Part shown: piece after piece, positions 11,813 to 64,000 of the stretch
Layout of the letters: every line of letters starts with the position of its first letter
Position numbering within the stretch: the stretch's first letter is position 1
From: an uncultured Chitinophagaceae bacterium
Lineage (GTDB): Bacteria > Bacteroidota > Ignavibacteria > UBA10030 > UBA8401
Assembly (NCBI GenBank): GCA_964355925.1
Contig: CAYHFN010000012.1
Span: 11,949-75,948, forward strand
DNA: 64,000 bases
Direction: 5' to 3'
The notes under the pieces: model-generated
The model's database searches: none
What the model saw: only the letters and a program-made list of their open reading frames with translations
Told to the model about the DNA's origin: nothing
Position numbers and translations under genes: made by a program

Positions 11813-13123
11813 ATGAAATACATCTTAGTAGTGATTATTTCTGCCGTTATTTTTATTGGATGTACAAAGGATTCATCTACAAATGCGCCGCAAAAATTAC
11901 AAGGCGGCAATGGTTCGGTAGGTTTGATTTTTGACAAAGTTTCCACACCGGAAGGCGTTGTGAGTATAAATGCAACGCTAAGTCGTAACGGAAATATTTC
12001 CATTACAAAAACCCTGAATCTTTTGTCAGATTCATCTGCCGAAGCCTTGTTCGAAAATATTGCAATAGGAATCTGGAAATTAAAAGTTGATGCAACGAAT
12101 TCATCAAGTCAGGTTCTCTATACAGGTCAAGCGGATGTGACTGTGATTGAAGGTATTATAACTCAAGTAAGCCTTGTATTGCAACCTATTAGTAATGGAA
12201 CGGGGGGTATTAAAATAAATGTGAGTTGGGGAAATACACCTCTTTCATGGATTGATTTTGGAAATAATCCGGTGCTTAAAAAACAAACAACAAAATATGA
12301 CGGACGTGGTATTGGTTATCCGATAGTCTTCAGGGAAGATTCATTGTATCGATTATATTATACTAATATTCAAAGCCAGGTAGATTCTAATGGTGCATTT
12401 AGTTCTGTTGGTCTTGCAACGTCTATTGATGGAATACAATGGAAACATTATTCCCAAGAACCAGTATTGAAACCAACTAAAAATGGTTGGGACGCAGCCA
12501 TTGTAGTGTCAGGACAAGTTTTGAAGGATGGAAATATTTATAAAATGTTTTACGAGGGTGCATCCATAGTTGGCGGTCAATTAAAAATCGGATTAGCGAC
12601 TTCGTTGGATGGTATCCATTGGGATAAAAGATCAGAACCAGTATTTCAAGGAACGACGGGTTGGGAAACTTCAATTGGGGTTTGGGGAGTAGTGAAAGTA
12701 AATACTACATTTTATATGTATTATCATTCTGCTGTTCCACAAAATATTGGACTTGCAACTTCGGCTGATGGAATTAATTGGACCAGGTATTCAGGGAATC
12801 CTATCGTCGTTCCAAGTCAAAACTGGGAAAGTTCAGGTATTGCCATGGCTTCCGTAATATTTGATAATGGTTTATTTAAAATGGTTTATCTTAATGGAGA
12901 TTACAGCGCAAGTTTTGGATATGCAACTTCGAAAGACGGAATTATTTGGGTAAAAGATTTGGTAAATCCAATATTCTCAAAAGCAAAAACATTGAATAAT
13001 TGGGCACCTGGAACGATCAGTTATTCGTTTCTTACAAAAATTGGTAATCAAGAAAGAATTTATTATACCGGTAATAATTCTGGGAATAGTGAAATGTCAA
13101 TTGGTTTTGCTTATAAAAAGTAG
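11813..13123 (+). CDS. lipoprotein with N-terminal Ig-like domain and C-terminal 5-bladed beta-propeller (GH43/GH130/DUF377-like glycosidase fold)
   Basis: The lipobox-like signal is MKYILVVIISAVIFIGC. The motif G(L/Y)ATSxDGIxW recurs four times (GLATSIDGIQW, GLATSLDGIHW, GLATSADGINW, GYATSKDGIIW), which indicates propeller blades. Confidence 0.5.
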   Translation: MKYILVVIISAVIFIGCTKDSSTNAPQKLQGGNGSVGLIFDKVSTPEGVVSINATLSRNGNISITKTLNLLSDSSAEALFENIAIGIWKLKVDATNSSSQVLYTGQADVTVIEGIITQVSLVLQPISNGTGGIKINVSWGNTPLSWIDFGNNPVLKKQTTKYDGRGIGYPIVFREDSLYRLYYTNIQSQVDSNGAFSSVGLATSIDGIQWKHYSQEPVLKPTKNGWDAAIVVSGQVLKDGNIYKMFYEGASIVGGQLKIGLATSLDGIHWDKRSEPVFQGTTGWETSIGVWGVVKVNTTFYMYYHSAVPQNIGLATSADGINWTRYSGNPIVVPSQNWESSGIAMASVIFDNGLFKMVYLNGDYSASFGYATSKDGIIWVKDLVNPIFSKAKTLNNWAPGTISYSFLTKIGNQERIYYTGNNSGNSEMSIGFAYKK

Positions 13124-52729: not shown

Positions 52730-54094
52730 TTATTTAACCTGGAGTCGGGGCAGTAACCGTGCAATTTTACTCGTTAGTGTCGTCCGTGGAATGTTGAGTA
52801 GTTTCGCAGCATCGGTTATACTATTCGAGCAACGCGTCAGTGCCCATTCGATCATTGCTTTTTCTTTTTGTGAAATGTATTCTTCCAACGACTTAAACGA
52901 TTCAAAAGATTCTGCGCTACTATGGCGACCGTGTAAATGGGAACCGAAATCAAGTACGGAAATATCAATCTGTCCGCTGAATGATAATGCGATCATTCGT
53001 TCAACAATGTTCTCTAATTCCCTCACATTTCCTCTCCAATCGTATGATTGCAGTTTATCGAAAATCTCTTTTGTAAGAAGCATTATTTTGTCTTCAGCAT
53101 GATGTTTTCTAAAAAAATATTCTACAAGCAGCGGAATATCTTCTTTTCGTTCGCGAAGTGGAGGAAGTTTTAATGGGATAATATTCAAGCGATAGAAAAG
53201 ATCTTCTCTGAATGTTTTATTCTCAACCTTTTTCTTAAGGTCGATTTTTGTCGCACAAATAATGCGAACGTTTATACTAATGTTTTGATCCCCGCCGACG
53301 TGTGTAAGTTCACGCTCTTGAATGACACGTAACAATTTGATCTGTACGCTTAATGGAAAATCATCGATATCATCAATAAATAGGGTTCCGTTGTTTGCTC
53401 GTTCAAAATATCCGATATGTTGTTTAATTGCACCAGTAAATGAGCCTTTTTCGTGCCCGAACAATTCGCTTTCTAAAAGGCTTTCCGGAATGCTTGAAAC
53501 GCTGACCGTTACAAAATTTTCATTACGACGTGAACTTGCTTTGTGTAATGCGCGTGCAACAAGTTCCTTACCCGTTCCGCTTTCTCCTTCTATCAACACC
53601 GTGGAATCATTTTGAGCAATTTGGTTGATCGTTTGCACTAATTTCTTCATAGGCTGCGATAAACCAATAATGGTCTTGTTCTCAAGAGTTTGGATCTTGT
53701 TCTTTAGCTCTTCGTTTTCCGAAAGCACTTTTTGCAGTTGATCTATATTACGGAGAATGGAGATCAGTTTTTCCGGAGAGAATGGTTTTGTAAGATAATC
53801 ATAGGCACCAATCTTCAATGATTGAATTGCCGTATCAACGCTTGCAAACGCAGTGATTAAAATAACCTTGCACATCGGATTGATAGCCATAACTGATGTT
53901 AATATTTCAATTCCATTCATCTTTGGAAGCCGAAGATCGGTAATGACAATTTCAGGTTTCTCCGATTTGAAGATTGTTAATCCTTCATCCCCGTCTTCTG
54001 CAGAATGGACTTCATATCCCTCAATGGCTAAAATATCCGAAAGAGATTTTCGTGTAATCTTTTCATCTTCAATGATTAATAATTTTTTTTTCAT
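52730..54094 (-). CDS. sigma-54-dependent response regulator (NtrC family: REC + AAA+ + Fis-type HTH)
   Basis: The REC domain has LLIIEDE...DLRLPKMNG. The AAA+ domain has GESGTGKE, the GAFTGA-variant GSFTGA, and LFLDDI-like LFIDDI. The C-terminal HTH is ITDAAKLLNIPRTTL. Confidence 0.85.
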   Translation of the reverse strand: MKKKLLIIEDEKITRKSLSDILAIEGYEVHSAEDGDEGLTIFKSEKPEIVITDLRLPKMNGIEILTSVMAINPMCKVILITAFASVDTAIQSLKIGAYDYLTKPFSPEKLISILRNIDQLQKVLSENEELKNKIQTLENKTIIGLSQPMKKLVQTINQIAQNDSTVLIEGESGTGKELVARALHKASSRRNENFVTVSVSSIPESLLESELFGHEKGSFTGAIKQHIGYFERANNGTLFIDDIDDFPLSVQIKLLRVIQERELTHVGGDQNISINVRIICATKIDLKKKVENKTFREDLFYRLNIIPLKLPPLRERKEDIPLLVEYFFRKHHAEDKIMLLTKEIFDKLQSYDWRGNVRELENIVERMIALSFSGQIDISVLDFGSHLHGRHSSAESFESFKSLEEYISQKEKAMIEWALTRCSNSITDAAKLLNIPRTTLTSKIARLLPRLQVK

Positions 54095-55544
54095 ACGCGA
54101 TTGGTAATGTTATTCTAAAAATTGTTTCGACATTCTGTATGCTCTTGACACCGATGTGTCCTCCATGAGATTCAATGATTCCCATACATACAGATAAACC
54201 TAATCCAGTTCCGATGCCGACATCTTTTGTTGTAAAAAAAGGGTCGAATATTTTCTTAAGATCATCGGAAGCTATCCCTTCACCGTTATCGCGTATTTCA
54301 ATAAAAACAGATGATTCATCGGCACTTCCGGTCATAATACTGATCGATCCATTTTGGTCAATAGCATCATAACTGTTCAAGACCATATTCATGATTACTT
54401 CTTGAAAGAGATGATAATCGATCTGAACATCACAGATATCGTCCGAGAGATGCAATTGTATATCGATCATTTTCTCTTTTAATCGTAATTCAAAAAGATT
54501 AACAACTTTTGAAATGGCGTCATTGATATTGATAAAATTATCAGATGTAGATTGCTGTCGTGCAAATCCGAGAAGTTTTTTTACAATGGTCTCAATATCG
54601 TTTATTCCTTCATTGATCAGATTAAGGTATTCATTTGTTTTTTGACTATCGTTTGAATTCTGTTTGATTGCGTATAAGCATGATTTTATACCATTCAAAG
54701 GATTATTCACTTGATGAGCAACACCCGAAGCAAGTCTGCCAATAGAAGCAAGTTTTTCAGCATGATAAATTTGCTTTTGAGCTTGTTCCAATTCTTTTTT
54801 TGAATTATCGAGCCGTTCTTGGAGCAATTTAAAATGATGATAGAAAAAACCGATCTCATCCTGCTGTTGAGGCAGGGCAATCTGGATATTAGTGGCAAAA
54901 TCGATCGAATCTATTACATGAACCAATTTTTCAATTGATGATGTCATGCGATTGATGGAAATAAATAGGATAACAAGAACAAAAGATGTGATAAGTATTG
55001 TTGCCGTAAATAGCAATAGAAAAACACTGCTAATCTCATCGCGTATCGGTTGTGCATCAAATCCAATCTTTGCTGTACCCCAATGTTTTCCAGAAAAAAC
55101 TAATGGTTGATGAAGTTCCATTGTCCAGCCAAACTGAGGATTTTCATAGATCTTGATTTCATTTGTCTTGGGTAACGTTGTAGCAAGTTCGAACGGAAGG
55201 GGTGGATCATAATTTAATCGATTGGTGAGCTGAATAATAGATGTTCCATTCTTATCAAAGATGACGACATATTTAACATTGCCCAAACGGGTAATAAAGT
55301 TCTCTACATAGGTTTCGAGAATATTTTCCTTTTTATAAATGGATTTTTCTTCAAAGATCATTGCATCAATCACCGTTACCGCAAACGTTTTGGAAATTGA
55401 GACCGCATTATCAGATTGCTTCTGGATGATGATCTTCCTCCATTCAAAAAGAAGAACAAACGAGATCAATAGCATCAACAGGGTGATGACAGTTCCGGTA
55501 AGAAGTAAGATTCTTGTCTTTAAACTTGAACGAACATTGAACAT
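54069..55544 (-). CDS. sensor histidine kinase (two TM helices, periplasmic domain, HisKA + HATPase_c)
   Basis: The H-box is GRLASGVAHQVNNPL, the N-box is LNSYDA, the G-boxes are DNGEGI and GTGLGLS. It overlaps the response regulator gene by 26 nt. Confidence 0.8.
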   Translation of the reverse strand: MFNVRSSLKTRILLLTGTVITLLMLLISFVLLFEWRKIIIQKQSDNAVSISKTFAVTVIDAMIFEEKSIYKKENILETYVENFITRLGNVKYVVIFDKNGTSIIQLTNRLNYDPPLPFELATTLPKTNEIKIYENPQFGWTMELHQPLVFSGKHWGTAKIGFDAQPIRDEISSVFLLLFTATILITSFVLVILFISINRMTSSIEKLVHVIDSIDFATNIQIALPQQQDEIGFFYHHFKLLQERLDNSKKELEQAQKQIYHAEKLASIGRLASGVAHQVNNPLNGIKSCLYAIKQNSNDSQKTNEYLNLINEGINDIETIVKKLLGFARQQSTSDNFININDAISKVVNLFELRLKEKMIDIQLHLSDDICDVQIDYHLFQEVIMNMVLNSYDAIDQNGSISIMTGSADESSVFIEIRDNGEGIASDDLKKIFDPFFTTKDVGIGTGLGLSVCMGIIESHGGHIGVKSIQNVETIFRITLPIAYEKKIINH

Positions 55545-55555
55545 TCTTTTCTCAG

Positions 55556-56467
55556 TTATTTACTTATTGTTCTTACAACATCATAATCTTTATCGATTGC
55601 CTCAACAAAGCCATAAATGAATTCGTTATCCCATCCCTGAGTGATTTTTTCTCGTTCTGGATTAAATCGATCGAGTGATAATAGCGTTCTTTTTATGGCT
55701 TCAACAATTGGTTTTGAATGTTCTTGTGCTACAACAATAGGGGATGTTGGAAATGGATCGGAGTATAATAGAATCCGAATATTTCTATTCTTAATTTTTT
55801 GTATCAAATATTCCCGGGTTACTCCAACATCGAATATTTCATTGATGACATTATAGATTACACTTTGATGATGCGGAAAATTTACGATTGCCGTAAGGTC
55901 ACTTTCCTTGATATTATTCTTATTAAATTCGTAACGAAGAAGCCAGTTTGAAGAGTATGATTCTTTGGATGGGAGAGCAAGTTTTTTCTTTCTTAGATCA
56001 TTTAAACTATAAATATTATTTGAACCGGTTGTAAACAAAACGGAACGTGAGAATGGTTCATAATTACTGTTTAAGGGTTTTAAAATAGGGATGACGCCAT
56101 ATTCTTCATGTGCTTTTATATATACATATGAACCTAAAAATGCCGCAACAACCTCTTTCTTTATTAACATATTCACCGCTTGGTTATAATCATCACACAA
56201 TTTTAATTCGAATCTATATTCAGTTTTCGATGTGAGATAATCCAACATTGGCTGATACCCACTGTATATTATATTAGGCGGGTACCGTGAAATAACGCTG
56301 ATATAAACGATCGGCTTGTTTATTGAAGTTGTATCGTTCACAATTTCTTCAAAATTACTTTTTACGGTTCCCTCAATATTTACCGCATATTGATAGAAAT
56401 AAAATGTAAAAATTAATGTAAAAAACAGGAGAAGAAATATTCCACCGTAAATAATTTTCTTTTTCAT
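55556..56467 (-). CDS. membrane-anchored PhnD-like (phosphate/phosphonate-type) substrate-binding domain protein
   Basis: It has an N-terminal TM anchor. The periplasmic-binding-protein fold pattern (ISRYPPN..Y..YQPMLDYL......FELK...DY..AV..L...EV.AAFLGS.VY) resembles the PhnD family. It is the first gene of the operon with the kinase. Confidence 0.55.
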   Translation of the reverse strand: MKKKIIYGGIFLLLFFTLIFTFYFYQYAVNIEGTVKSNFEEIVNDTTSINKPIVYISVISRYPPNIIYSGYQPMLDYLTSKTEYRFELKLCDDYNQAVNMLIKKEVVAAFLGSYVYIKAHEEYGVIPILKPLNSNYEPFSRSVLFTTGSNNIYSLNDLRKKKLALPSKESYSSNWLLRYEFNKNNIKESDLTAIVNFPHHQSVIYNVINEIFDVGVTREYLIQKIKNRNIRILLYSDPFPTSPIVVAQEHSKPIVEAIKRTLLSLDRFNPEREKITQGWDNEFIYGFVEAIDKDYDVVRTISK

Positions 56468-56586
56468 CTAAGTATAAGATCAATGAATAAAGCTGTTTAC
56501 AATAACGTTATATAAAAATCGTTCCAAAAATTATTCATTATAAACGGAACAAAAGGATGTTAATTTTTATAGTCTTAATTATTGAC

Positions 56587-56619
56587 GACGATAAACCGCC
56601 AGGATGACCATTTATCGTC
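56587..56619. promoter_or_regulatory. inverted repeat, candidate enhancer (UAS) site for the sigma-54 activator
   Basis: gacgataaa-N15-tttatcgtc has perfect 9-bp arms and lies about 60-95 nt upstream of the sigma-54-like promoter element. Confidence 0.3.
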
Positions 56620-56679
56620 AAACAAGGTACATTTTTTTCACTAAAAGTCTATTTTTAATGAAATATAGGTTATTGCAAA

Positions 56680-56695
56680 TGGCATATTATTTGCC
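56680..56695 (+). promoter_or_regulatory. candidate sigma-54 (-24/-12) promoter
   Basis: TGGCAT-attat-TTGCC compares with the consensus TGGCAC-N5-TTGCW, with GG and GC at the correct spacing. It lies 43 nt upstream of the ATG at 56738 and is divergent from the NtrC-type regulator operon. It also forms part of the palindrome aatggca-N7-tgccatt. Confidence 0.45.
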
Positions 56696-56737
56696 ATTAG
56701 TTTACAAAATCCATTAATATTATCGAAAGGAGCTATT

Positions 56738-57322
56738 ATGCAAGAAATTATTCCTCGCTGGGAATGGCGGACATTTACTAATGATCTGAAAAAAGCAGAA
56801 GAAAACATCCGCAAACATGCGGAAGGAAAATCGCGTGAAAGTGCCGAGGTTTATATACTATCCGAAGTGAGCATGGACAATACAAAAGTGCGCGATAACT
56901 TGATGGATATAAAAACTCTCCAACAGGTGAATGAAGATAGACTTGAACTTTGGCTCCCGATCATGAAAGGAACCTTTCCGCTGCCTGTTGCAGAGATCGA
57001 AAAAGTGTTCAAATGTTTCAGAGTGAGCGTTCCAAAGTTCCAACGCGATCAATACACTTTTGAACAATATCTCGAAGAAGTGATCCGTCCTTCAAAATTA
57101 TTGAAAGCGGTCAACGTACTAAAAAAACGTACCGGTTTCACAATTAACAATTGTATTGTTGAGATTGCTGAAGTGAAAGTGGACGACAAGTGGATTAAAA
57201 CTGCTGCTGTTGAAATGGAAGATCCTGCAATGGTCATCAAAACGGTACGTGAATTGGAACTTGATACATTTCCGAACATCAACTATCTGCGCGGTCTAAA
57301 GAACCTCGTTGGAATGAAATAA
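56738..57322 (+). CDS. hypothetical protein, possibly a degenerate CYTH-like domain
   Basis: The N-terminal RWEWRTF aligns positionally with the EIERKFL (ExExK) motif of the downstream CYTH protein, but acidic residues are lost. It has a beta-rich pattern and lies 11 nt upstream of the CYTH gene. Confidence 0.35.
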   Translation: MQEIIPRWEWRTFTNDLKKAEENIRKHAEGKSRESAEVYILSEVSMDNTKVRDNLMDIKTLQQVNEDRLELWLPIMKGTFPLPVAEIEKVFKCFRVSVPKFQRDQYTFEQYLEEVIRPSKLLKAVNVLKKRTGFTINNCIVEIAEVKVDDKWIKTAAVEMEDPAMVIKTVRELELDTFPNINYLRGLKNLVGMK

Positions 57323-57333
57323 GGAGATCCCGT

Positions 57334-57801
57334 ATGGCAAATGAAATTGAGCGAAAATTTTTAGTAAAGGGTGATTTTAAACCGTTTATCAGCAAACAAA
57401 CGCGTATCGTGCAGGGATATCTTTCATCTGTTCCCGAGCGCACAGTACGTGTTCGCATTAAAGGTGACAAAGGATTTCTTACAATAAAAGGAATTGGAAA
57501 TATTTCCGGTGCCAGCAGATATGAATGGGAAAAAGAAATTCCGATCACGGAAACGGAAGAGCTATTAAAAATTTGTGAACCGGGAGTGATTGATAAAACC
57601 AGATTTATGGTAAAAGCAGGCCCGCACACATTTGAAGTTGATGAATTCTACGGAGAGAACAATGGGCTTGTTGTTGCGGAGATTGAATTAGGATCGGAAA
57701 CGGAATCGTTTGAAAGACCATCGTGGCTGGGAGAAGAAGTTACCGGTGATACAAAATACTATAATTCAATGTTGATGAAGAATCCATTCACACGATGGTG
57801 A
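57334..57801 (+). CDS. CYTH-domain protein (triphosphate tunnel metalloenzyme; CyaB/ThTPase family)
   Basis: MANEIERKFLV is the ExExK signature. VRVRIKGDKGFLTIKG, YEWEKEI and VAEIEL are also present. Confidence 0.8.
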   Translation: MANEIERKFLVKGDFKPFISKQTRIVQGYLSSVPERTVRVRIKGDKGFLTIKGIGNISGASRYEWEKEIPITETEELLKICEPGVIDKTRFMVKAGPHTFEVDEFYGENNGLVVAEIELGSETESFERPSWLGEEVTGDTKYYNSMLMKNPFTRW

Positions 57802-57852
57802 TCTTTCATTCATTGATAGAATGATAATAATAATAATTTCAATGAGAATATC

Positions 57853-59448
57853 ATGACTTCATTTGATCCGTTCAATATGCAAAATTATCGTATTGAACGG
57901 TTACCCAAACGCGAAAAGGGAGCAATAGAAAAATGGCTCGCCATTTCAGGTCCGCTGCTAGCTGTTATCGCATTTATTCTATTTGCATATGTGATCAAAC
58001 TTCCATTCCTGCACTCCATTCAATCTTCCGATATCGTTACCGATGCTGCCAAAAAAGTATTCTCTCAAGTTGGTGCAGAACAGTTCATCCGAAGCAATGA
58101 ATACATGCTTGCCATTTTTATTTCATCCATCATTTTGTGGATGACACAGGCAATTCCAAACTATCTCACCTCGCTGATACTGATCATTAGTCTTGTTCTT
58201 ACCGGCGTTTTGTCGGAGAAAACAGCGTATGCACAGCTCGGACATCCGGTGATGTGGTTGAACATTATGTCGTTCGTTCTCGCCAGTATGCTTGTTGTTA
58301 CGGGGCTTGCAAAACGATTTGCGTTGTGGTTGATTCTCCGATTCGGGAAAAATGCCAGTACAATCTTTTTAAGTTTTATCGTGATCAATATGATCTTATC
58401 TGCATTCATCTCTGCAACAACTGCGAAAGCAGCTATTTTACTACCAATCTTTATGGTGATCGCCGCAGTGTACGGAGCTCAGGGAGGAAAGAATAGAAAT
58501 AATTTCGGTCGAAGTATTGTACTGCAAAATCTCCTTTGCATCAATCTTGGTGCCGGGGCATTCGTTACTGGATCCGGCGCGAATCTGCTGGGTGCCGCCT
58601 TGATCGGTGGAGCGATAAGCGGTAGTGTTTTTTTTGCAGATTGGATGTTAGCAATGTTTCCATTTATGCTAACAATGATGTTCATCGGATACATCGTTGC
58701 AATGAAGATTTATTTTCCACTCTCTCCGAAAGAACGTCTGCCGCAGATCGAAGGAGGAATGGAGAGATTGCGAGATGAATATAAAAAACTCGGCCCTGTA
58801 ACAATGCTTGAAAAAAAATCAGCAATAATTTTCATCGCTATTCTTGGATTTTGGGCAACGGATAGTGTACATGGAATTAGTCCGACAGCTGTGGCTTTTG
58901 TTGGAGCAATCGTCGCATTACTGCCAAAATATGGAATAGTGGAATGGAATGAAGTTGATGTTCCCTGGCATCTGATGCTGTTCTCAGCAGGAGCATATAC
59001 ACTTGGAGCAGGACTTGATGCTACCGATCTTCCGGCGATCAGCGTCAATGCGTTCTTTAATCGCATAGGAATTGGTAATTCGACAGAATTTTGGGTTTTG
59101 TATCTATCATTGACCGGATTAATGATTTTCAGTGCATTGCTGTTCCAATCCAAAACAATGCGTGCGATGATTTTCATCCCGATCGCAATCGGCGTTGCAA
59201 ATAGATTTGGATTTGCAGTAATCAGCTTGGCATTACCCGTTGCATTTATGATCGAACATGTTTATGTGCTTCCGTTCAACAGCAAACCCGCTGCATTGTT
59301 GTATGAAACCGATCAATATAGTATGGCGGATACATTCAAATTTGGTTTAACAATGATGGTGATTGCCTGGTTATTGAATATCGTTGCAGGAGAAACGTGG
59401 TTCCGATATCTCGGCATTACGCCGAACGGTGTATTTGGATTATTCTAA
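57853..59448 (+). CDS. DASS/SLC13-type (ArsB/NhaD superfamily) anion permease
   Basis: 531 aa and polytopic, with two similar halves. The TAKAAILLPI and VYVLPFNSKPAA segments are hairpin-like motifs of the DASS/citrate-transporter-like families. Confidence 0.65.
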   Translation: MTSFDPFNMQNYRIERLPKREKGAIEKWLAISGPLLAVIAFILFAYVIKLPFLHSIQSSDIVTDAAKKVFSQVGAEQFIRSNEYMLAIFISSIILWMTQAIPNYLTSLILIISLVLTGVLSEKTAYAQLGHPVMWLNIMSFVLASMLVVTGLAKRFALWLILRFGKNASTIFLSFIVINMILSAFISATTAKAAILLPIFMVIAAVYGAQGGKNRNNFGRSIVLQNLLCINLGAGAFVTGSGANLLGAALIGGAISGSVFFADWMLAMFPFMLTMMFIGYIVAMKIYFPLSPKERLPQIEGGMERLRDEYKKLGPVTMLEKKSAIIFIAILGFWATDSVHGISPTAVAFVGAIVALLPKYGIVEWNEVDVPWHLMLFSAGAYTLGAGLDATDLPAISVNAFFNRIGIGNSTEFWVLYLSLTGLMIFSALLFQSKTMRAMIFIPIAIGVANRFGFAVISLALPVAFMIEHVYVLPFNSKPAALLYETDQYSMADTFKFGLTMMVIAWLLNIVAGETWFRYLGITPNGVFGLF

Positions 59449-59465
59449 CAAAAGCAGAGGATACA

Positions 59466-60110
59466 ATGTCTTTATTTTTTAAAAACACTTCAAAGCTGGA
59501 AGCACAGATCGATGAATATCTCGATTTGGTGATTAAAGGCGGTCTGGTTTTTCGCCAGGGAATAAAATGTTATCTCGATCATCAGACGGAAGAGTTCGAA
59601 AATTACTTGAAAGAACTTCGGAAAACGGAAGAACGGGCAGATGATCTTCGACGAAATATTGAAATTAAATTATATACAAGAACGCTAATCCCCGAAGCGC
59701 GCGGCGATGTGTTGGGTCTTATGGAAAGCTGTGACAAAGCTTTGAATATTACGACCGAAACATTACTGGAATTTTCTGTTGAAATCCCAAAGATCATTCC
59801 CGAACATCGGCAGGATTTTCTTGATCTATGCGAAAGCTCTGTAGCATGTCTTGAAAACACGGTCAGTGGAATTCGATCATACTTCAAAAATATCGATGCT
59901 GTTCGAGATTACGTAACAAAAGTTCAGTTCTATAAGAAAGAGACGAACAAAATTGCGGAAAAAATAAAACGCTCCGCATTTAGAACCGATGATGAACTGA
60001 GTCAAAAGATCCATATCCGATATTTTACATTTCATATCGAACGTATTGCAGAACAATCTGAAGATGTGTGTGACCGGCTTTCGATCGCAATTATTAAAAG
60101 GTTTGAATAG
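59466..60110 (+). CDS. DUF47 (PhoU-like, TIGR00153) phosphate-transport regulator
   Basis: I chose the start at MSLFFKNTSKLEAQIDEYLD. It is predicted as a helical bundle and ends ERIAEQSEDVCDRLSIAIIK. It lies immediately upstream of and abuts a PiT gene, which is the classic pairing. Confidence 0.75.
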   Translation: MSLFFKNTSKLEAQIDEYLDLVIKGGLVFRQGIKCYLDHQTEEFENYLKELRKTEERADDLRRNIEIKLYTRTLIPEARGDVLGLMESCDKALNITTETLLEFSVEIPKIIPEHRQDFLDLCESSVACLENTVSGIRSYFKNIDAVRDYVTKVQFYKKETNKIAEKIKRSAFRTDDELSQKIHIRYFTFHIERIAEQSEDVCDRLSIAIIKRFE

Positions 60111-61597
60111 TGGTTGATATTTCTATTTGGTTCTTTATCTCCAGTGGATTGTTTTTGGGCTGGTCACTTGGTGCAAACCACGCAGTGAATGTCTTTGGCA
60201 CCGCTGTAGTATCCAAGATGGTTAAGTTTCGATCGGCGGCACTGATTGCCGGTGTCTTTGTCATTCTTGGATCGGTGATCAGCGGTTCCGGAACAACGAG
60301 GACCATTGCGGAATTAGGTCCGATCAATGCGATAGCCGGAAGTTTTTCTGTTGCTCTTGCTGTCGGAATTTCTATTACCGCAATGACTCGCTATAAACTT
60401 CCGGTATCGACATCGCAGGCAGTGATAGGAGCAATTATCGGATGGAATATTTTTACCGGCTCACCGACTGATCTTGGATCATTGAGCAGAATCATCTCCA
60501 GTTGGATTGCATCGCCGATCATTGCCGGAATTTTCGGCTATCTTATATTTATTGTTTTAAAAAGAACCGTGTTGAAATGGAGGATCCACTTGCTGGAATT
60601 GGATCAATATACGCGTGTCGGTTTGATTATTGTTGGAGCATTAGCATCATATTCGCTGGGAGCGAACAACATTGCCAATGTTATGGGGATGTTTATATTT
60701 GCACCATTGTTTAGCGATCACACTATTGCCGGGATTGTTACAATAACAGGAGTTCAGCAATTGTTCTTCCTTGGCGGTGTTGCAATTGCAATCGGAATAT
60801 TTACGTATGGCAGAAGTGTTATGGAAACAGTCGGAAACGATCTCTATAAAATTTCCCCGCTTACAGGTTTTGTTGTGGTCTTTGCAGAATTTTTGGTTCT
60901 TACTTTATTCACATCGGAAACGATAGAGTCTTTTTTATTGAGCATTAATCTACCCTCAATTCCATTGGTTCCGCTTTCTACAACGCAGGCGTTCATCGGA
61001 GCAATTCTAGGTGTTGGATTGGCAAAAGATCCTCACTCTATCAATTTTAAAGTTTTAGGAAAAATTGCCCTTGGCTGGGTGATTGCCCCGATCAGCGCTG
61101 GTTTGATCACATTTGTTTCATTGTTTTTTATCCAAAATGTTTTTGAGCAAAACATCATTTATCCTGTTCCGTATGAAATTTCAAAATCCGTTCTTAATGA
61201 ACTTGACCGCGAAGGAGTCCCAGTTGAAAATATAAAACAGATAATTGGGAAGAGGTTCTATAATAAAAAAGTGCTTCGAAACGAATTATTAAAACGGCAT
61301 AATTATACGAACGCTCAGATCTATTCCATTTTTCAATATGCAATTATCGACAGCTTTCGAGTTGATTCGGCACTGGTTCTTTTGAATCTTTCAAACAGTT
61401 TCTTGTCCGATGAGCAAATTACTACTTTAAAATCGAATCATGGGAAGACATTTCGACATAAGATCGATTTCGAGATTTTTCTGTCTAACAAAAAAATCGA
61501 GTTTATCCCGACGGGAAATAAATTATTTGATAAACGAATTGAAGAGAATAAATTGTTAGTAGAAAAAATATTTAGGGTTACAACGAAAAATAAATAA
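60110..61597 (+). CDS. PiT-family inorganic phosphate transporter with a roughly 150-aa C-terminal soluble extension
   Basis: GTG start overlapping the upstream stop. The two PiT signature repeats are GANHAVNVFGTAV and GANNIANVMG. The TM region ends near residue 345 and is followed by a charged tail. Confidence 0.8.
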   Translation: MVDISIWFFISSGLFLGWSLGANHAVNVFGTAVVSKMVKFRSAALIAGVFVILGSVISGSGTTRTIAELGPINAIAGSFSVALAVGISITAMTRYKLPVSTSQAVIGAIIGWNIFTGSPTDLGSLSRIISSWIASPIIAGIFGYLIFIVLKRTVLKWRIHLLELDQYTRVGLIIVGALASYSLGANNIANVMGMFIFAPLFSDHTIAGIVTITGVQQLFFLGGVAIAIGIFTYGRSVMETVGNDLYKISPLTGFVVVFAEFLVLTLFTSETIESFLLSINLPSIPLVPLSTTQAFIGAILGVGLAKDPHSINFKVLGKIALGWVIAPISAGLITFVSLFFIQNVFEQNIIYPVPYEISKSVLNELDREGVPVENIKQIIGKRFYNKKVLRNELLKRHNYTNAQIYSIFQYAIIDSFRVDSALVLLNLSNSFLSDEQITTLKSNHGKTFRHKIDFEIFLSNKKIEFIPTGNKLFDKRIEENKLLVEKIFRVTTKNK

Positions 61598-61654
61598 CTG
61601 TTTCAGATTTAACAACATCATAATTTTTATACACTATTTAAAACTGGAGTTATT

Positions 61655-62935
61655 ATGAACATCCGTCAAAGATTAAGAAGTATTTTTGTTTTGGCGTGTC
61701 TTGCAACAATGAGTTCCATGATATTGGCTCAAGATTCACGCATTCCCGGTGGTGATCAAAAAGTACCATTGGGTGCCGAAGTTCGAAACGGTAAACTGGT
61801 GTTCGCATCGGAAGATGGGGAATATCGTTGGTGGTTCGATTCACGAATTCAATTAGATGGTGCAATGTATTTTGAGAATAAAAATGCAATGAGCAATGGA
61901 TTCACATTCCGTCGGTTGACTTTCGCAATGAAATCTCTGCTTACGAAAGATTGGGAAGCAGAGTTGGATCTTGATTTTGCAGAACAGGTTTCAACAAAAT
62001 CTCAACTGGAATTGCGTGATGCATGGATAAAATATACCGTTCCGGATGTGAATCTCTCTTTTCAAGTAGGACATTTCAAGGAACCATTTGGAATGGAGCG
62101 TTTGAATAGTTCTCGGTTATTGATCTTTTTAGAACGCTCTTCAATTTCTAATGCTCTTCCGTTAGGCAGAAGAGTCGGTCTGTCAGGGCGATATTGGACA
62201 GATTATGCACAGGTAACAGCAGCAGTTATGGGGCATGAAATGGGAACTAGAATTGACAAAGGACAGAGAGATGAAGGTTTTTCTACAAATCTTCGTATGT
62301 CCGTTGCTCCAATCAACGAGCATGGTATGAATCTCCATATTGGACTTGCCGGTTCATACAAAACTCCAGATGCAACTGCCGAACTGAATGCAAATACCAT
62401 CGAGATCAGTTCGAGAACCGAAACTTATGTTTCCAATCCAAAATTACTTCATTCCGGTGATATTGCAGACGTGAATTATTACAATCGATATGGTGCAGAA
62501 TTAGCATTTATTATGGGCTCTTTTTATGCTCAAACTGAATATATGGGAACAAAGATCATTCGCTGGTACGGAAAAGAGGATGTAGATATGTCGGGTGGAT
62601 ATTTGACAGCGACATGGATTGTGACTGGTGAAACGCGCTACTATTATGTTGATGAAGGAGAAGTTGGTCCTATTGAATCTCCAACACATTCGTGGGGTGC
62701 ATTAGAATTAGCAGCTCGATACAGCATTACGGATCTGAATGATCTTCCTGCAGGTATTCATGGCGGGAAATCGAATCAATTGATGCTCGGTGTGAATTAC
62801 TATCCGAATATAAACATTAAACTGCAATTCAATTATTCACAGGTTGATCTCGATCAATATGCAACACGGAAAGGAAATTTGATCGGCAATGACGATCATT
62901 CATTCATTCAAATGAGATTCCAAGCATCATTCTAA
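61655..62935 (+). CDS. phosphate-selective porin OprO/OprP family
   Basis: It has a signal peptide. Family-style segments are RIQLDG..YFEN, F.FRR.T, DAWIKY, GHFKEPFGMERL.SSR...FLERS and a C-terminal F. Confidence 0.7.
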   Translation: MNIRQRLRSIFVLACLATMSSMILAQDSRIPGGDQKVPLGAEVRNGKLVFASEDGEYRWWFDSRIQLDGAMYFENKNAMSNGFTFRRLTFAMKSLLTKDWEAELDLDFAEQVSTKSQLELRDAWIKYTVPDVNLSFQVGHFKEPFGMERLNSSRLLIFLERSSISNALPLGRRVGLSGRYWTDYAQVTAAVMGHEMGTRIDKGQRDEGFSTNLRMSVAPINEHGMNLHIGLAGSYKTPDATAELNANTIEISSRTETYVSNPKLLHSGDIADVNYYNRYGAELAFIMGSFYAQTEYMGTKIIRWYGKEDVDMSGGYLTATWIVTGETRYYYVDEGEVGPIESPTHSWGALELAARYSITDLNDLPAGIHGGKSNQLMLGVNYYPNINIKLQFNYSQVDLDQYATRKGNLIGNDDHSFIQMRFQASF

Positions 62936-62953
62936 CCAAGAGGAAAAAATAAT

Positions 62954-63865
62954 ATGAAAACATTTTTGAGCATTATCATTCCTGTTGTCTTCGCCGGCTT
63001 CTTCTTCTCGTGCTCTCGAACCGAACCGGCACCTTCAGGACCCCCGACTGTTGAGGTCGTTTCGGTAAAAGTAAATGAAGTCTATACTCGCGGAATTCCC
63101 TCCAGCCCTGACTGGATTGAAATCTATAATCCAAATTCGTCCTCCGTTGATATCGGCGGATATAAGGTCTATAATCTTGTCGGAAAAAACGGTACAAAAC
63201 CGAAGAAAATGATTCCAGCCGGAACATCCATAGCAGGGAAGAGCCTTTATGTAGTGATCGTGAACGATACTGTATCGACCAGTGGCTTCGATCTTTCAGC
63301 GGCTGGAGAAACCGTATGGTTTGAAAACGGCAGCGGAACAATCATCGACAGTGTGTTAACACCTGTCCTTGGCATTGATTCGTCCTATGCTCGAAAACCG
63401 GATGGTGCAAGCACCTGGGCAACGGTGACACCTCCGACAAAAGGTACAGCAAACTCCATTCTTCCGATCGTGATGAATGAGATTTTTTCACGGGGAGTTC
63501 CCGGAGATCTTGATTGGATTGAGATCTACAATCCCAACATTACATCTATTGATGTTGGCGGATATAAAATCTATGATGTAGGGGGACAGAGCGGAGTAAA
63601 ACCGAAGAAAGAAATACCTTCTGGAACCAGTATTCCCGGTAAAGGATTTTTTGTGATTACCGTTGATACGGCAGATGCTTCCGGATTTGGATTGTCCAGT
63701 GCAGGTGAAGCTGCGTGGTTGGAAAATGCCAATGGAAATATCATAGATAATGTAACGTTCCCGGCAATGCCTGTCGCAACTTCATCATACGGAAGAGTTC
63801 CAAACGGTTCATCAACATGGCAAATAATGAATACGATATCAAAAGGCGGATCGAACGTGCCATAA
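62954..63865 (+). CDS. lipoprotein with two tandem lamin-tail domains (LTD)
   Basis: The lipobox is FFFSC. There are two about 140-aa repeats: VNEVYTRGIPSSPDWIEIYNPNSSSVDIGGYKVYN...KPKK.IP.GTSI.GK...V and MNEIFSRGVPGDLDWIEIYNPNITSIDVGGYKIYD...KPKKEIPSGTSIPGK. Confidence 0.7.
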   Translation: MKTFLSIIIPVVFAGFFFSCSRTEPAPSGPPTVEVVSVKVNEVYTRGIPSSPDWIEIYNPNSSSVDIGGYKVYNLVGKNGTKPKKMIPAGTSIAGKSLYVVIVNDTVSTSGFDLSAAGETVWFENGSGTIIDSVLTPVLGIDSSYARKPDGASTWATVTPPTKGTANSILPIVMNEIFSRGVPGDLDWIEIYNPNITSIDVGGYKIYDVGGQSGVKPKKEIPSGTSIPGKGFFVITVDTADASGFGLSSAGEAAWLENANGNIIDNVTFPAMPVATSSYGRVPNGSSTWQIMNTISKGGSNVP

Positions 63866-63873
63866 CAAGAATT

Positions 63874-63908
63874 AGGGAAGCTTTCATTATGATAATGAAT
63901 GCTTCCCT
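63874..63908 (+). terminator. hairpin, possible terminator of the phosphate operon
   Basis: agggaagctttcatt-atgat-aatgaatgcttccct forms a 15-bp stem with one mismatch, followed by a T-rich tract. Confidence 0.4.
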
Positions 63909-63926
63909 TTATTTAATGGACTTATT

Positions 63927-64000
63927 GTGATTGGTTGTCTCAAAAAATATATTGTTGTGTTCTTTTGTGTCAGTCCTGCATTCATCGGATGCGAACGAGA
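63927..64000 (+). CDS. possible 5' end of a lipoprotein gene (truncated by the window end)
   Basis: A GTG start gives VIGCLKKYIVVFFCVSPAFIGCER, which is signal- and lipobox-like. It is too short to confirm. Confidence 0.2.
   Translation, partial: MIGCLKKYIVVFFCVSPAFIGCER

Follow-up and report, generated by a model that had tools for sequence, protein, structure and literature searches.

The DNA analysed here is a 64,000-nt stretch (positions 11,949 to 75,948 of contig CAYHFN010000012.1, assembly GCA_964355925.1), referred to as the window, from the metagenome-assembled genome of an uncultured bacterium placed in the Ignavibacteria. At 52730-63865 it holds two divergent gene sets separated by 270 bp (56468-56737): genes for a putative three-component sensor on the minus strand and a candidate phosphorus-acquisition operon on the plus strand. 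The sensor genes encode an NtrC-type sigma-54 activator (52730..54094, 454 aa), a sensor histidine kinase (54069..55544, 491 aa) and a PhnD-family binding protein (55556..56467, 303 aa). An 11-nt gap lies between the binding-protein and kinase genes (55544/55556), and the kinase and activator genes share 26 nt (54069-54094). The operon begins with P194, a 194-aa protein (56738..57322), followed by a CYTH enzyme (57334..57801, 155 aa), a DASS permease (57853..59448, 531 aa), a DUF47 (PhoU_div) protein (59466..60110), a PiT permease (60110..61597, 495 aa), an OprO/OprP-family porin (61655..62935, 426 aa) and a double lamin-tail-domain (LTD) lipoprotein (62954..63865), with intergenic gaps of 11, 51, 17, -1, 57 and 18 nt. 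The open reading frame (ORF) list of the window returns all 10 genes at the coordinates and spacings reported in a preliminary description of the locus. The DUF47 gene most likely starts at ATG 59466 (214 aa) and not at GTG 59397; its ortholog in the related locus L008 is 212 aa long. Nothing in the observed locus is a chance pattern.

A check for rpoN in the source genome (3.8 Mb, 99.7% complete) found the gene, with a profile score above the cut-off. The same genome carries a classical phosphate kit. Contig C7 contains candidates for pstS, pstC and pstA, recognised by position, size and a PstS-like N-terminus, and then pstB and phoU, both of which exceed their profile cut-offs; some of the phoU region is given as N in the sequence file. 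The ppk1 gene adjoins ppx, one further ppx is present, and a second PiT-like gene with 25% identity is found on contig C1. The top PhoB-like and top PhoR-like genes are adjacent (contig C1:49732-51585) and likely constitute a PhoBR pair; they score below the proteobacterial cut-offs, as do their counterparts in most control genomes. The preliminary description had envisaged a sigma-54 system instead of the classical Pho regulon. The sigma-54 wiring is supported, but the replacement is not: because pstSCAB-phoU, ppk-ppx and a likely PhoBR pair are also present, the sensor-operon system is an accessory to the classical PstSCAB-PhoU/PhoBR-like kit.

Promoter, upstream palindromes and their inheritance

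Comparative footprinting gives the strongest evidence for the proposed wiring. Scanning with a 17-sequence P194 alignment, one genome for each species, yielded 80 loci, onto which the ten window proteins were mapped by tblastn. Operon context is present in 46 of these loci. The three sensor genes are adjacent and divergent in 33 of the 80, two of which are truncated and were left out of the operon-type count. By record title, these loci belong to Ignavibacteria, Calditrichia, KSB1 and Krumholzibacteria, with some from unclassified bins. When 151 genomes were sampled evenly across the class, five had the binding protein and six had P194, and all five binding-protein genomes have P194 adjacent and divergent. 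The sensor-operon system is a patchy accessory trait of the class.

The sigma-54-type window promoter (56680-56695, +), with the sequence TGGCATATTATTTGC at 56680-56694, reads TGGCAT-N5-TTGC and is located 43 nt before the P194 start codon. Its strict form, TGGCAY-N5-TTGC, has 11 matches in the entire 3.8-Mb genome. The relaxed form yGGCAy-N5-TTGn is found 35-140 nt ahead of the P194 start in 45 of the 46 operon-type loci, which represent at least four phyla, against a chance expectation of 0.02 per 105-nt interval. The -24/-12 element claimed in the preliminary description is not only confirmed for the window, it is nearly universal in operon-type loci. Among the 34 loci with other P194 contexts the element appears in three, two of them being the truncated sensor-type loci. 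GGCA-N6-TTG is invariant in an alignment of eleven upstream regions (A3), where non-coding conservation is confined to this motif, the tandem palindromes described below and the ribosome-binding site. Across upstream regions L018-L097, just 19 of 48 sites have TTGC as the -12 part, and TTGA and TTGT are about as common. The window promoter also sits inside a palindrome, AATGGCA-N7-TGCCATT. This was considered as a repressor site and rejected; the palindrome is not conserved among relatives, which makes a repressor-site reading unlikely.

Further upstream, two 14-bp palindromic sites, GACGATAAACCGCC and GACCATTTATCGTC, are arranged in tandem at 56587-56619 (no strand assigned), with starts at 56587 and 56606, 19 bp apart. 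The inverted repeat noted previously is present, with arms GACGATAAA (56587-56595) and TTTATCGTC (56611-56619), but it is better read as these two adjacent palindromes. In the window and close relatives the sites are of the type GACGA-N4-TCGTC and lie approximately 75-95 bp upstream of the promoter. The pair occurs once in the whole genome. Relatives share the block TGACGACGAaAAATCGTCA-N3-TGAC-N6-TCGTCA, including loci with unlinked sensor genes, and other phyla have lineage-specific variants such as GGCGA-N4-TCGCC. The tandem palindromes are the probable binding sites of the activator.

In three genomes of Melioribacteraceae type, a name carried in the titles of two of the records, no sensor genes adjoin the operon. 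All three operons retain the promoter and the palindromes, and each genome contains exactly one binding-protein ortholog, at a distance of 14 kb, at 58 kb or on another contig. In two unlinked sensor loci that were checked, one of them the 58-kb case, the sensor genes lie beside fur-znuABC and have no activator-type palindrome upstream. Autoregulation through the same sites was accordingly rejected as a requirement of the system. The intergenic region between the sensor genes and the divergent fur-znuABC (L010:9855-10005 and L011:9855-10005) contains a Fur-box-like palindrome, AATGCAAGTTGCTTGCATT.

Proteins of the sensor and the operon

The activator matches Response_reg (1e-29), Sigma54_activat (2e-68), AAA_lid_14 and HTH_8, a Fis-type helix-turn-helix, in Pfam, and direct reading of its sequence identifies the receiver Asp, the Walker A motif GESGTGKE and the GSFTGA loop. 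No NCBIfam equivalog matches it at cut-off; the PgtA model gives a weak match (2e-50, cut-off 650 bits). The kinase combines HisKA and HATPase_c domains. Hydropathy places hydrophobic segments, the two predicted membrane helices, at residues 8-41 and 170-202, which flank a periplasmic domain of ~128 residues, and residues 39-173 match sCache_3_2 weakly. The binding protein belongs to the Phosphonate-bd family (PF12974, 8.5e-45). It scores under the NCBIfam transporter cut-offs, lacks ABC permease and ATPase partner genes, and has no paralog elsewhere in the genome. Its structural model (pLDDT 88) consists of an N-terminal helix (residues 3-29), a disordered linker and the binding domain, and on this basis the protein is predicted to keep an uncleaved membrane anchor. 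The Pfam domains and rpoN together back the earlier claim of a bacterial enhancer-binding protein with a kinase and a membrane-anchored PhnD-like protein.

Sequence comparison with solved structures identifies ArrX, which senses arsenate in the ArrXSR system, as the best match of the binding protein (5.5e-13), ahead of PtxB (3e-7) and PhnD (9e-4); at a threshold of E 1e-3, AioX did not appear. With 23-24% identity, ArrX is also the highest among the fold matches in this respect. The clade retains Ser-x-Ser, His and Asp residues that align with both ArrX and PtxB. An invariant glycine, Gly112, takes the position of the ArrX cysteine (AioX Cys106). Residues R61 and K130 are invariant in the clade and R141 is nearly so, and none of the three is common to ArrX. 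Such a pocket may fit a more highly charged or larger oxyanion.

P194 had been labelled a degenerate CYTH protein, and this label is wrong. Neither Pfam, PF01928 included (E 0.01), nor NCBIfam gives a match, and a library search returns relatives in 1280 clusters at E 1e-3 or better (50% identity clustering). The AlphaFold2 model (pLDDT 97.7) is an eight-stranded tunnel fold. Almost all of its 37 Protein Data Bank (PDB) matches (E threshold 1e-3) are tunnel enzymes, and the best Foldseek matches are thiamine triphosphatase, AtTTM3, SaTTM and class IV cyclases. Where CYTH proteins have ExExK, P194 has PRWEWRTF (RxExR). The conserved charged residues are R7, E9, R11, E37, K50, R52, K59, E70, K129, R131, E142 and E159. 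Across most Ignavibacteria-type loci, P194 is 84-97% identical, compared to 40-78% for the binding protein. Taken with the predicted fold, the homologs mark P194 as a separate, very conserved and undescribed triphosphate-tunnel-fold family.

The contexts of P194 extend beyond the operon. Five of 10 long homologs are fusions to Ppx/GppA, and in three scanned loci (Clostridia, Acidobacteriaceae and Atribacterota) a short Ppx/GppA gene follows P194. Judged by ORF size, the same order occurs in Spirochaetia and Cloacimonadota. These P194-Ppx/GppA loci have TctCBA or NptA-PhoU next, or PiT-DUF47 upstream of P194. From the contexts across phyla it follows that P194 is the constant companion of polyphosphatases and anion importers.

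The second tunnel-fold protein is a true CYTH triphosphatase-family member, as had been proposed. It matches PF01928 (2e-13, 51 bits against a cut-off of 23.2), carries the ExExK motif as EIERK at residues 4-8, and among solved structures matches 3typ (5e-18) and 2fbl/NE1496, that is NeuTTM (1e-17). NeuTTM is an inorganic triphosphatase. Both CYTH and P194 can be set against the CYTH/TTM structures (NeuTTM 2fbl, SaTTM 7nsf, AtTTM3 5a67 and thiamine triphosphatase 3tvl). The 155-aa protein resembles these by sequence, and P194 by fold and inward-facing charged residues; P194 differs in having RxExR for ExExK, in forming its own large family and in always being accompanied by a separate polyphosphatase (CYTH or Ppx). 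An Ignavibacteriales record (L053:2914-3970) contains a second, diverged P194-CYTH pair just past the activator gene, with 68% and 70% identity.

The DASS permease matches Na_sulph_symp (2e-51). By eye, it has an N-terminal extension of ~80 aa, and SATTA and FNSKPA stand where the Ser-Asn-Thr hairpin-tip motifs of sodium-coupled members are expected. DUF47, an accessory protein of PiT, matches PF01865 (5e-18) and is 75-100% identical in most Ignavibacteria-type loci. The PiT permease matches PHO4 over residues 21-333 (8e-63) and the solved phosphate transporter 6l85 (1e-22). It bears a soluble C-terminal extension of ~150 aa (window 61100-61597) that matches no family; the extension is kept in most orthologs, including those of Calditrichia and a Krumholzibacteria locus, and is absent in the KSB1 locus and two others.

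In Calditrichia and KSB1 sensor-type loci, TctCB-TctA occupies the DASS position. These loci (L056:9792-12878 and L055:1638-8269) encode a fused TctC-TctB together with TctA. The KSB1 locus adds a Na/Pi cotransporter with PhoU domains (NptA-PhoU), and its TctA is split into two ORFs. Some relatives (L041:10647-11366 and L021:10579-11340) have an extra gene for a 239-253 aa protein without a Pfam match. It comes right after a DASS gene that has diverged in sequence (35-39% identity). The extra gene separates DASS from DUF47 in L041; L021 is without DUF47-PiT, and the porin gene is next.

The porin matches PF07396 (3e-60, 204.9 bits against a cut-off of 20.9), OprP (3.5e-20) and OprO (1.4e-16), and retains arginines aligned with OprP R34, R59 and R60. 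Positions 62 and 114 are said to set the preference of these porins, being Tyr/Tyr in OprP and Phe/Asp in OprO. The aligned residues here are Thr and Lys, so that an attempt to assign an orthophosphate or a pyrophosphate preference failed at these diagnostic positions. The LTD lipoprotein has two LTD domains (6e-23) and an N-terminus that ends in FFSCS, and it is conserved at the operon end.

The preliminary description ended the operon at the LTD lipoprotein, and two more genes follow past the window end. A hairpin followed by UUUAUUU at 63874..63908 (+) has a minimum free energy of -20.3 kcal/mol (z -4.9, 0/200 shuffles as stable) and is likely a terminator or attenuator. A gene for an SdiA-regulated/phytase-like beta-propeller lipoprotein (SdiA-regulated 7e-29, Phytase-like 5e-10) then starts at 63927 on the plus strand and runs off the window, corresponding to 75875-76648 of contig C12. 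The next gene encodes a protein that combines two LTD domains and a type IX secretion sorting domain (LTD and Por_Secre_tail; contig C12:76686-77870). The two secreted-protein genes beyond the LTD gene are in identical order in L008. The phosphorus theme of the preliminary description holds for the gene set as a whole, with PiT, DUF47, the OprO/P porin and CYTH at this locus and NptA-PhoU, PiT-DUF47 and Ppx in other phyla.

Known systems and competing readings

The three-part sensor architecture is known from arsenic systems. AioX orthologues have been described as the only signalling members of their family (PMC5908839), and AioX-AioS, in which the AioS sensor domain is sCache-like, is the sole PF12974 example in a review of signalling binding proteins (PMC8050422); the weak sCache_3_2 match of the kinase agrees with this. 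AioXSR, ArxXSR and ArrXSR (Badilla et al. 2018, PMC5908839; ArrX structures 6x6b and 6xl2) share with the window a PF12974 protein, a kinase with an sCache-like domain, an NtrC-type activator and a -24/-12 promoter. Their targets are arsenite oxidase or arsenate reductase genes, whereas those here are phosphorus uptake genes: no aio, arx or arr genes are present, and the targets run from P194 through LTD. The arsenite-binding pocket cysteine, conserved in AioX, ArxX and ArrX, contrasts with the invariant glycine of this clade, and the predicted uncleaved membrane anchor is a further difference. The lineages also differ, being Proteobacteria and Chrysiogenetes for AioXSR/ArrXSR and Ignavibacteria, Calditrichia, KSB1 and Krumholzibacteria for this system. 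The proposal of a binding-protein co-sensor is supported by these parallels, a precedent that the preliminary description had overlooked.

Other signalling pairs, such as HptA-HptS, BctC-BctE, XylFII-LytS and TorT-TorS, likewise place a non-transport binding protein beside a kinase, with an uptake system as the output (PMC8050422). They draw on other binding-protein families and mostly on sigma-70 regulators. PgtC-PgtB-PgtA is likewise a signalling binding protein/kinase pair that induces a transporter, and PgtA is an activator of the sigma-54 type. XAC2383 of Xanthomonas citri (PDB 5ub7, ATP-bound) is another PhnD-fold periplasmic protein; it is ranked 35th in the fold search (TM 0.72, E ~3e-17), compared to 6th for ArrX. 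XAC2383 binds ligands that contain phosphate and acts as a receptor for the signalling enzyme next to it. This partner is a diguanylate cyclase, where the system here has a kinase and a sigma-54 activator, and we know of no phosphorus operon that involves it.

The classical Pho regulon (PhoR-PhoB, PstSCAB-PhoU and sigma-70 promoters with Pho boxes), like the operon here, comprises a phosphate porin, transporters and secreted scavenging proteins. It differs in its regulator, an OmpR-type winged-helix PhoB as opposed to an AAA+ sigma-54 activator; in its sensing, which proceeds via Pst/PhoU and here would proceed via a dedicated binding protein; and in its carrier, which is Pst and not PiT, DASS and DUF47. 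To our knowledge, textbooks attribute phosphate control to PhoBR and sigma-70 only.

We assign a probability of roughly 60% to the reading that a three-component sensor of the AioXSR/ArrXSR type controls a phosphorus-acquisition operon. It builds on the observed parts and folds, the conserved cis elements, the co-inheritance of sensor and operon, and rpoN. According to this model, the anchored PhnD-family protein would capture an extracellular phosphorus oxyanion (orthophosphate or condensed phosphate), and the loaded protein would dock on the sCache-like periplasmic domain of the kinase. The kinase would phosphorylate the activator, which would bind the two palindromes ~75-95 bp upstream and open the sigma-54 promoter with ATP. 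The output would be a porin-to-permease route for anions (PiT-DUF47 and DASS), the NeuTTM-like triphosphatase with P194, and surface lamin-tail proteins. A phosphorus oxyanion is the presumed ligand, and by analogy its binding would induce rather than repress the operon. Induction is favoured because signalling binding proteins usually work in this way (PMC8050422) and because the genome already has a system for starvation.

Several observations weigh against this model. The -12 element is often TTGA or TTGT and not TTGC, which is unusual with respect to the textbook sigma-54 consensus. The fold of the binding protein matches PtxB, ArrX, HtxB, PhnD and AioX about equally (TM ~0.8), so that the sensors ArrX and AioX are no closer to it than PtxB, HtxB and PhnD, which serve transport. 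Ser or Phe replaces the tyrosine found in PtxB and, as Tyr138, in ArrX (the residue mutated in entry 6x8w), and the ligand may therefore differ from those of the known relatives. The DASS permease is about equidistant from structure-known citrate, dicarboxylate and sulfate carriers. There are also weak NCBIfam matches to relatives that handle sulfur or selenium oxyanions, namely the sulfate permease CysP for PiT (4e-23), a putative selenate binding protein for the binding protein (2e-10) and ExtI for the porin (5e-8). Finally, sequence alone does not tell induction from repression.

A more specific version of the phosphorus model is possible, and we put it forward tentatively: the locus may serve the use of condensed inorganic phosphate that other cells release, in the form of pyrophosphate, triphosphate or short polyphosphate. 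The lamin-tail surface proteins would capture the polyanion and the OprO/P-type porin would admit it. DASS, or TctCBA at the same position in other phyla, would import it intact, and the tunnel-fold pair would cleave it in the cytoplasm (P194 and CYTH here, P194 and Ppx elsewhere). The sensor, with its extra Arg and Lys residues in the pocket region, would detect condensed phosphate. This version is supported by the constancy of P194 across lineages, in which the hydrolase (CYTH/Ppx) and the carrier (DASS/TctCBA) swap. We know of no described inner-membrane importer of condensed phosphate; if the reading is true, this one would be the first, and would come with a dedicated sensor.

The serious rival to sensor-driven induction inverts its logic, which we regard as improbable overall. 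The ligand-free binding protein would keep the kinase active and orthophosphate would switch it off, making the operon a second, sigma-54 starvation regulon. OprP/OprO-type porins are indeed starvation-induced in Pseudomonas, secreted phytase-like and nuclease-associated LTD proteins are typically starvation-induced elsewhere, and AI-2-bound LuxP offers a precedent by switching LuxQ to phosphatase mode. PiT-type carriers, however, work at higher phosphate concentrations, and the PhoBR-like pair and pstSCAB-phoU already serve starvation in this genome. Moreover, the signalling binding proteins tabulated in the review mostly induce uptake or catabolism of their ligands (PMC8050422).

It is unlikely that the module manages internal polyphosphate, with P194 and CYTH/Ppx degrading the store, PiT and DASS releasing or exchanging phosphate, and the sensor reporting on the outside. 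The fusion of P194 to Ppx/GppA, or its position before it, in many phyla would fit such a role, and the genome makes polyphosphate (ppk1 beside ppx). The anion porin, the TctCBA importers at the DASS position and the surface or secreted proteins instead suggest import.

More doubtful still is the possibility that another tetrahedral oxyanion (sulfate, selenate or arsenate) is sensed and imported in place of phosphorus. The weak CysP, selenate-binding and ExtI matches point in this direction, as do the sulfate carriers within DASS and the binding of arsenate by ArrX (PMC5908839), but these NCBIfam matches are all far under their cut-offs. In addition, DUF47, NptA-PhoU, Ppx, CYTH and P194 are phosphate-linked across phyla, the AioX/ArrX cysteine is a glycine here, and the locus contains no arsenic, sulfur or selenium enzymes.

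Least likely of all, a primary sigma factor would drive the operon and the tandem palindromes would bind a repressor or other regulator: the AATGGCA-N7-TGCCATT setting of the promoter, a weak sigma-70-like match overlapping it (56691-56720) and the poorly conserved C of the -12 element fit this view, but that palindrome is not conserved while GGCA-N6-TTG is invariant, sigma-70-like matches (48 sites versus 35.7 +/- 6 in shuffled sequence) are not clearly above expectation, and no other conserved block lies between the tandem palindromes and the ribosome-binding site.

The searched literature yielded no description of a phosphate version of an AioXSR-type sensor, nor of the link to a phosphorus operon, the spread over several Bacteroidota-related phyla or the tie to P194. 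Kinase-coupled PhnD-family sensors are known only for arsenic in the reviewed literature (PMC5908839, PMC8050422). A large, conserved phosphorus-linked clade would extend this sensor family to the nutrient that arsenate mimics, and would raise the question of whether the arsenic or the phosphorus use came first. The system would also add a sigma-54 route to bacterial phosphate control, and P194 represents an uncharacterised tunnel-fold family tied to polyphosphatases. Because the organisms that carry it are common scavengers of lake, sediment and wastewater habitats, the system matters for the cycling and recovery of phosphorus. It is small enough for reporter reconstruction in Escherichia coli.

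Genomic surroundings

A search for an empty site in G128, a genome of the same genus, gave no insertion boundary from synteny, because the best counterpart there of the fused adenylate kinase that flanks the locus is a 39% match. On contig C7 (44754-51232), a 467-aa protein is encoded upstream of the pst operon. It has no Pfam match, a signal-like N-terminus and an aromatic last residue, and may be an outer-membrane protein. It is preceded by a 111-aa lone winged-helix protein that consists of Trans_reg_C only, without a receiver domain.

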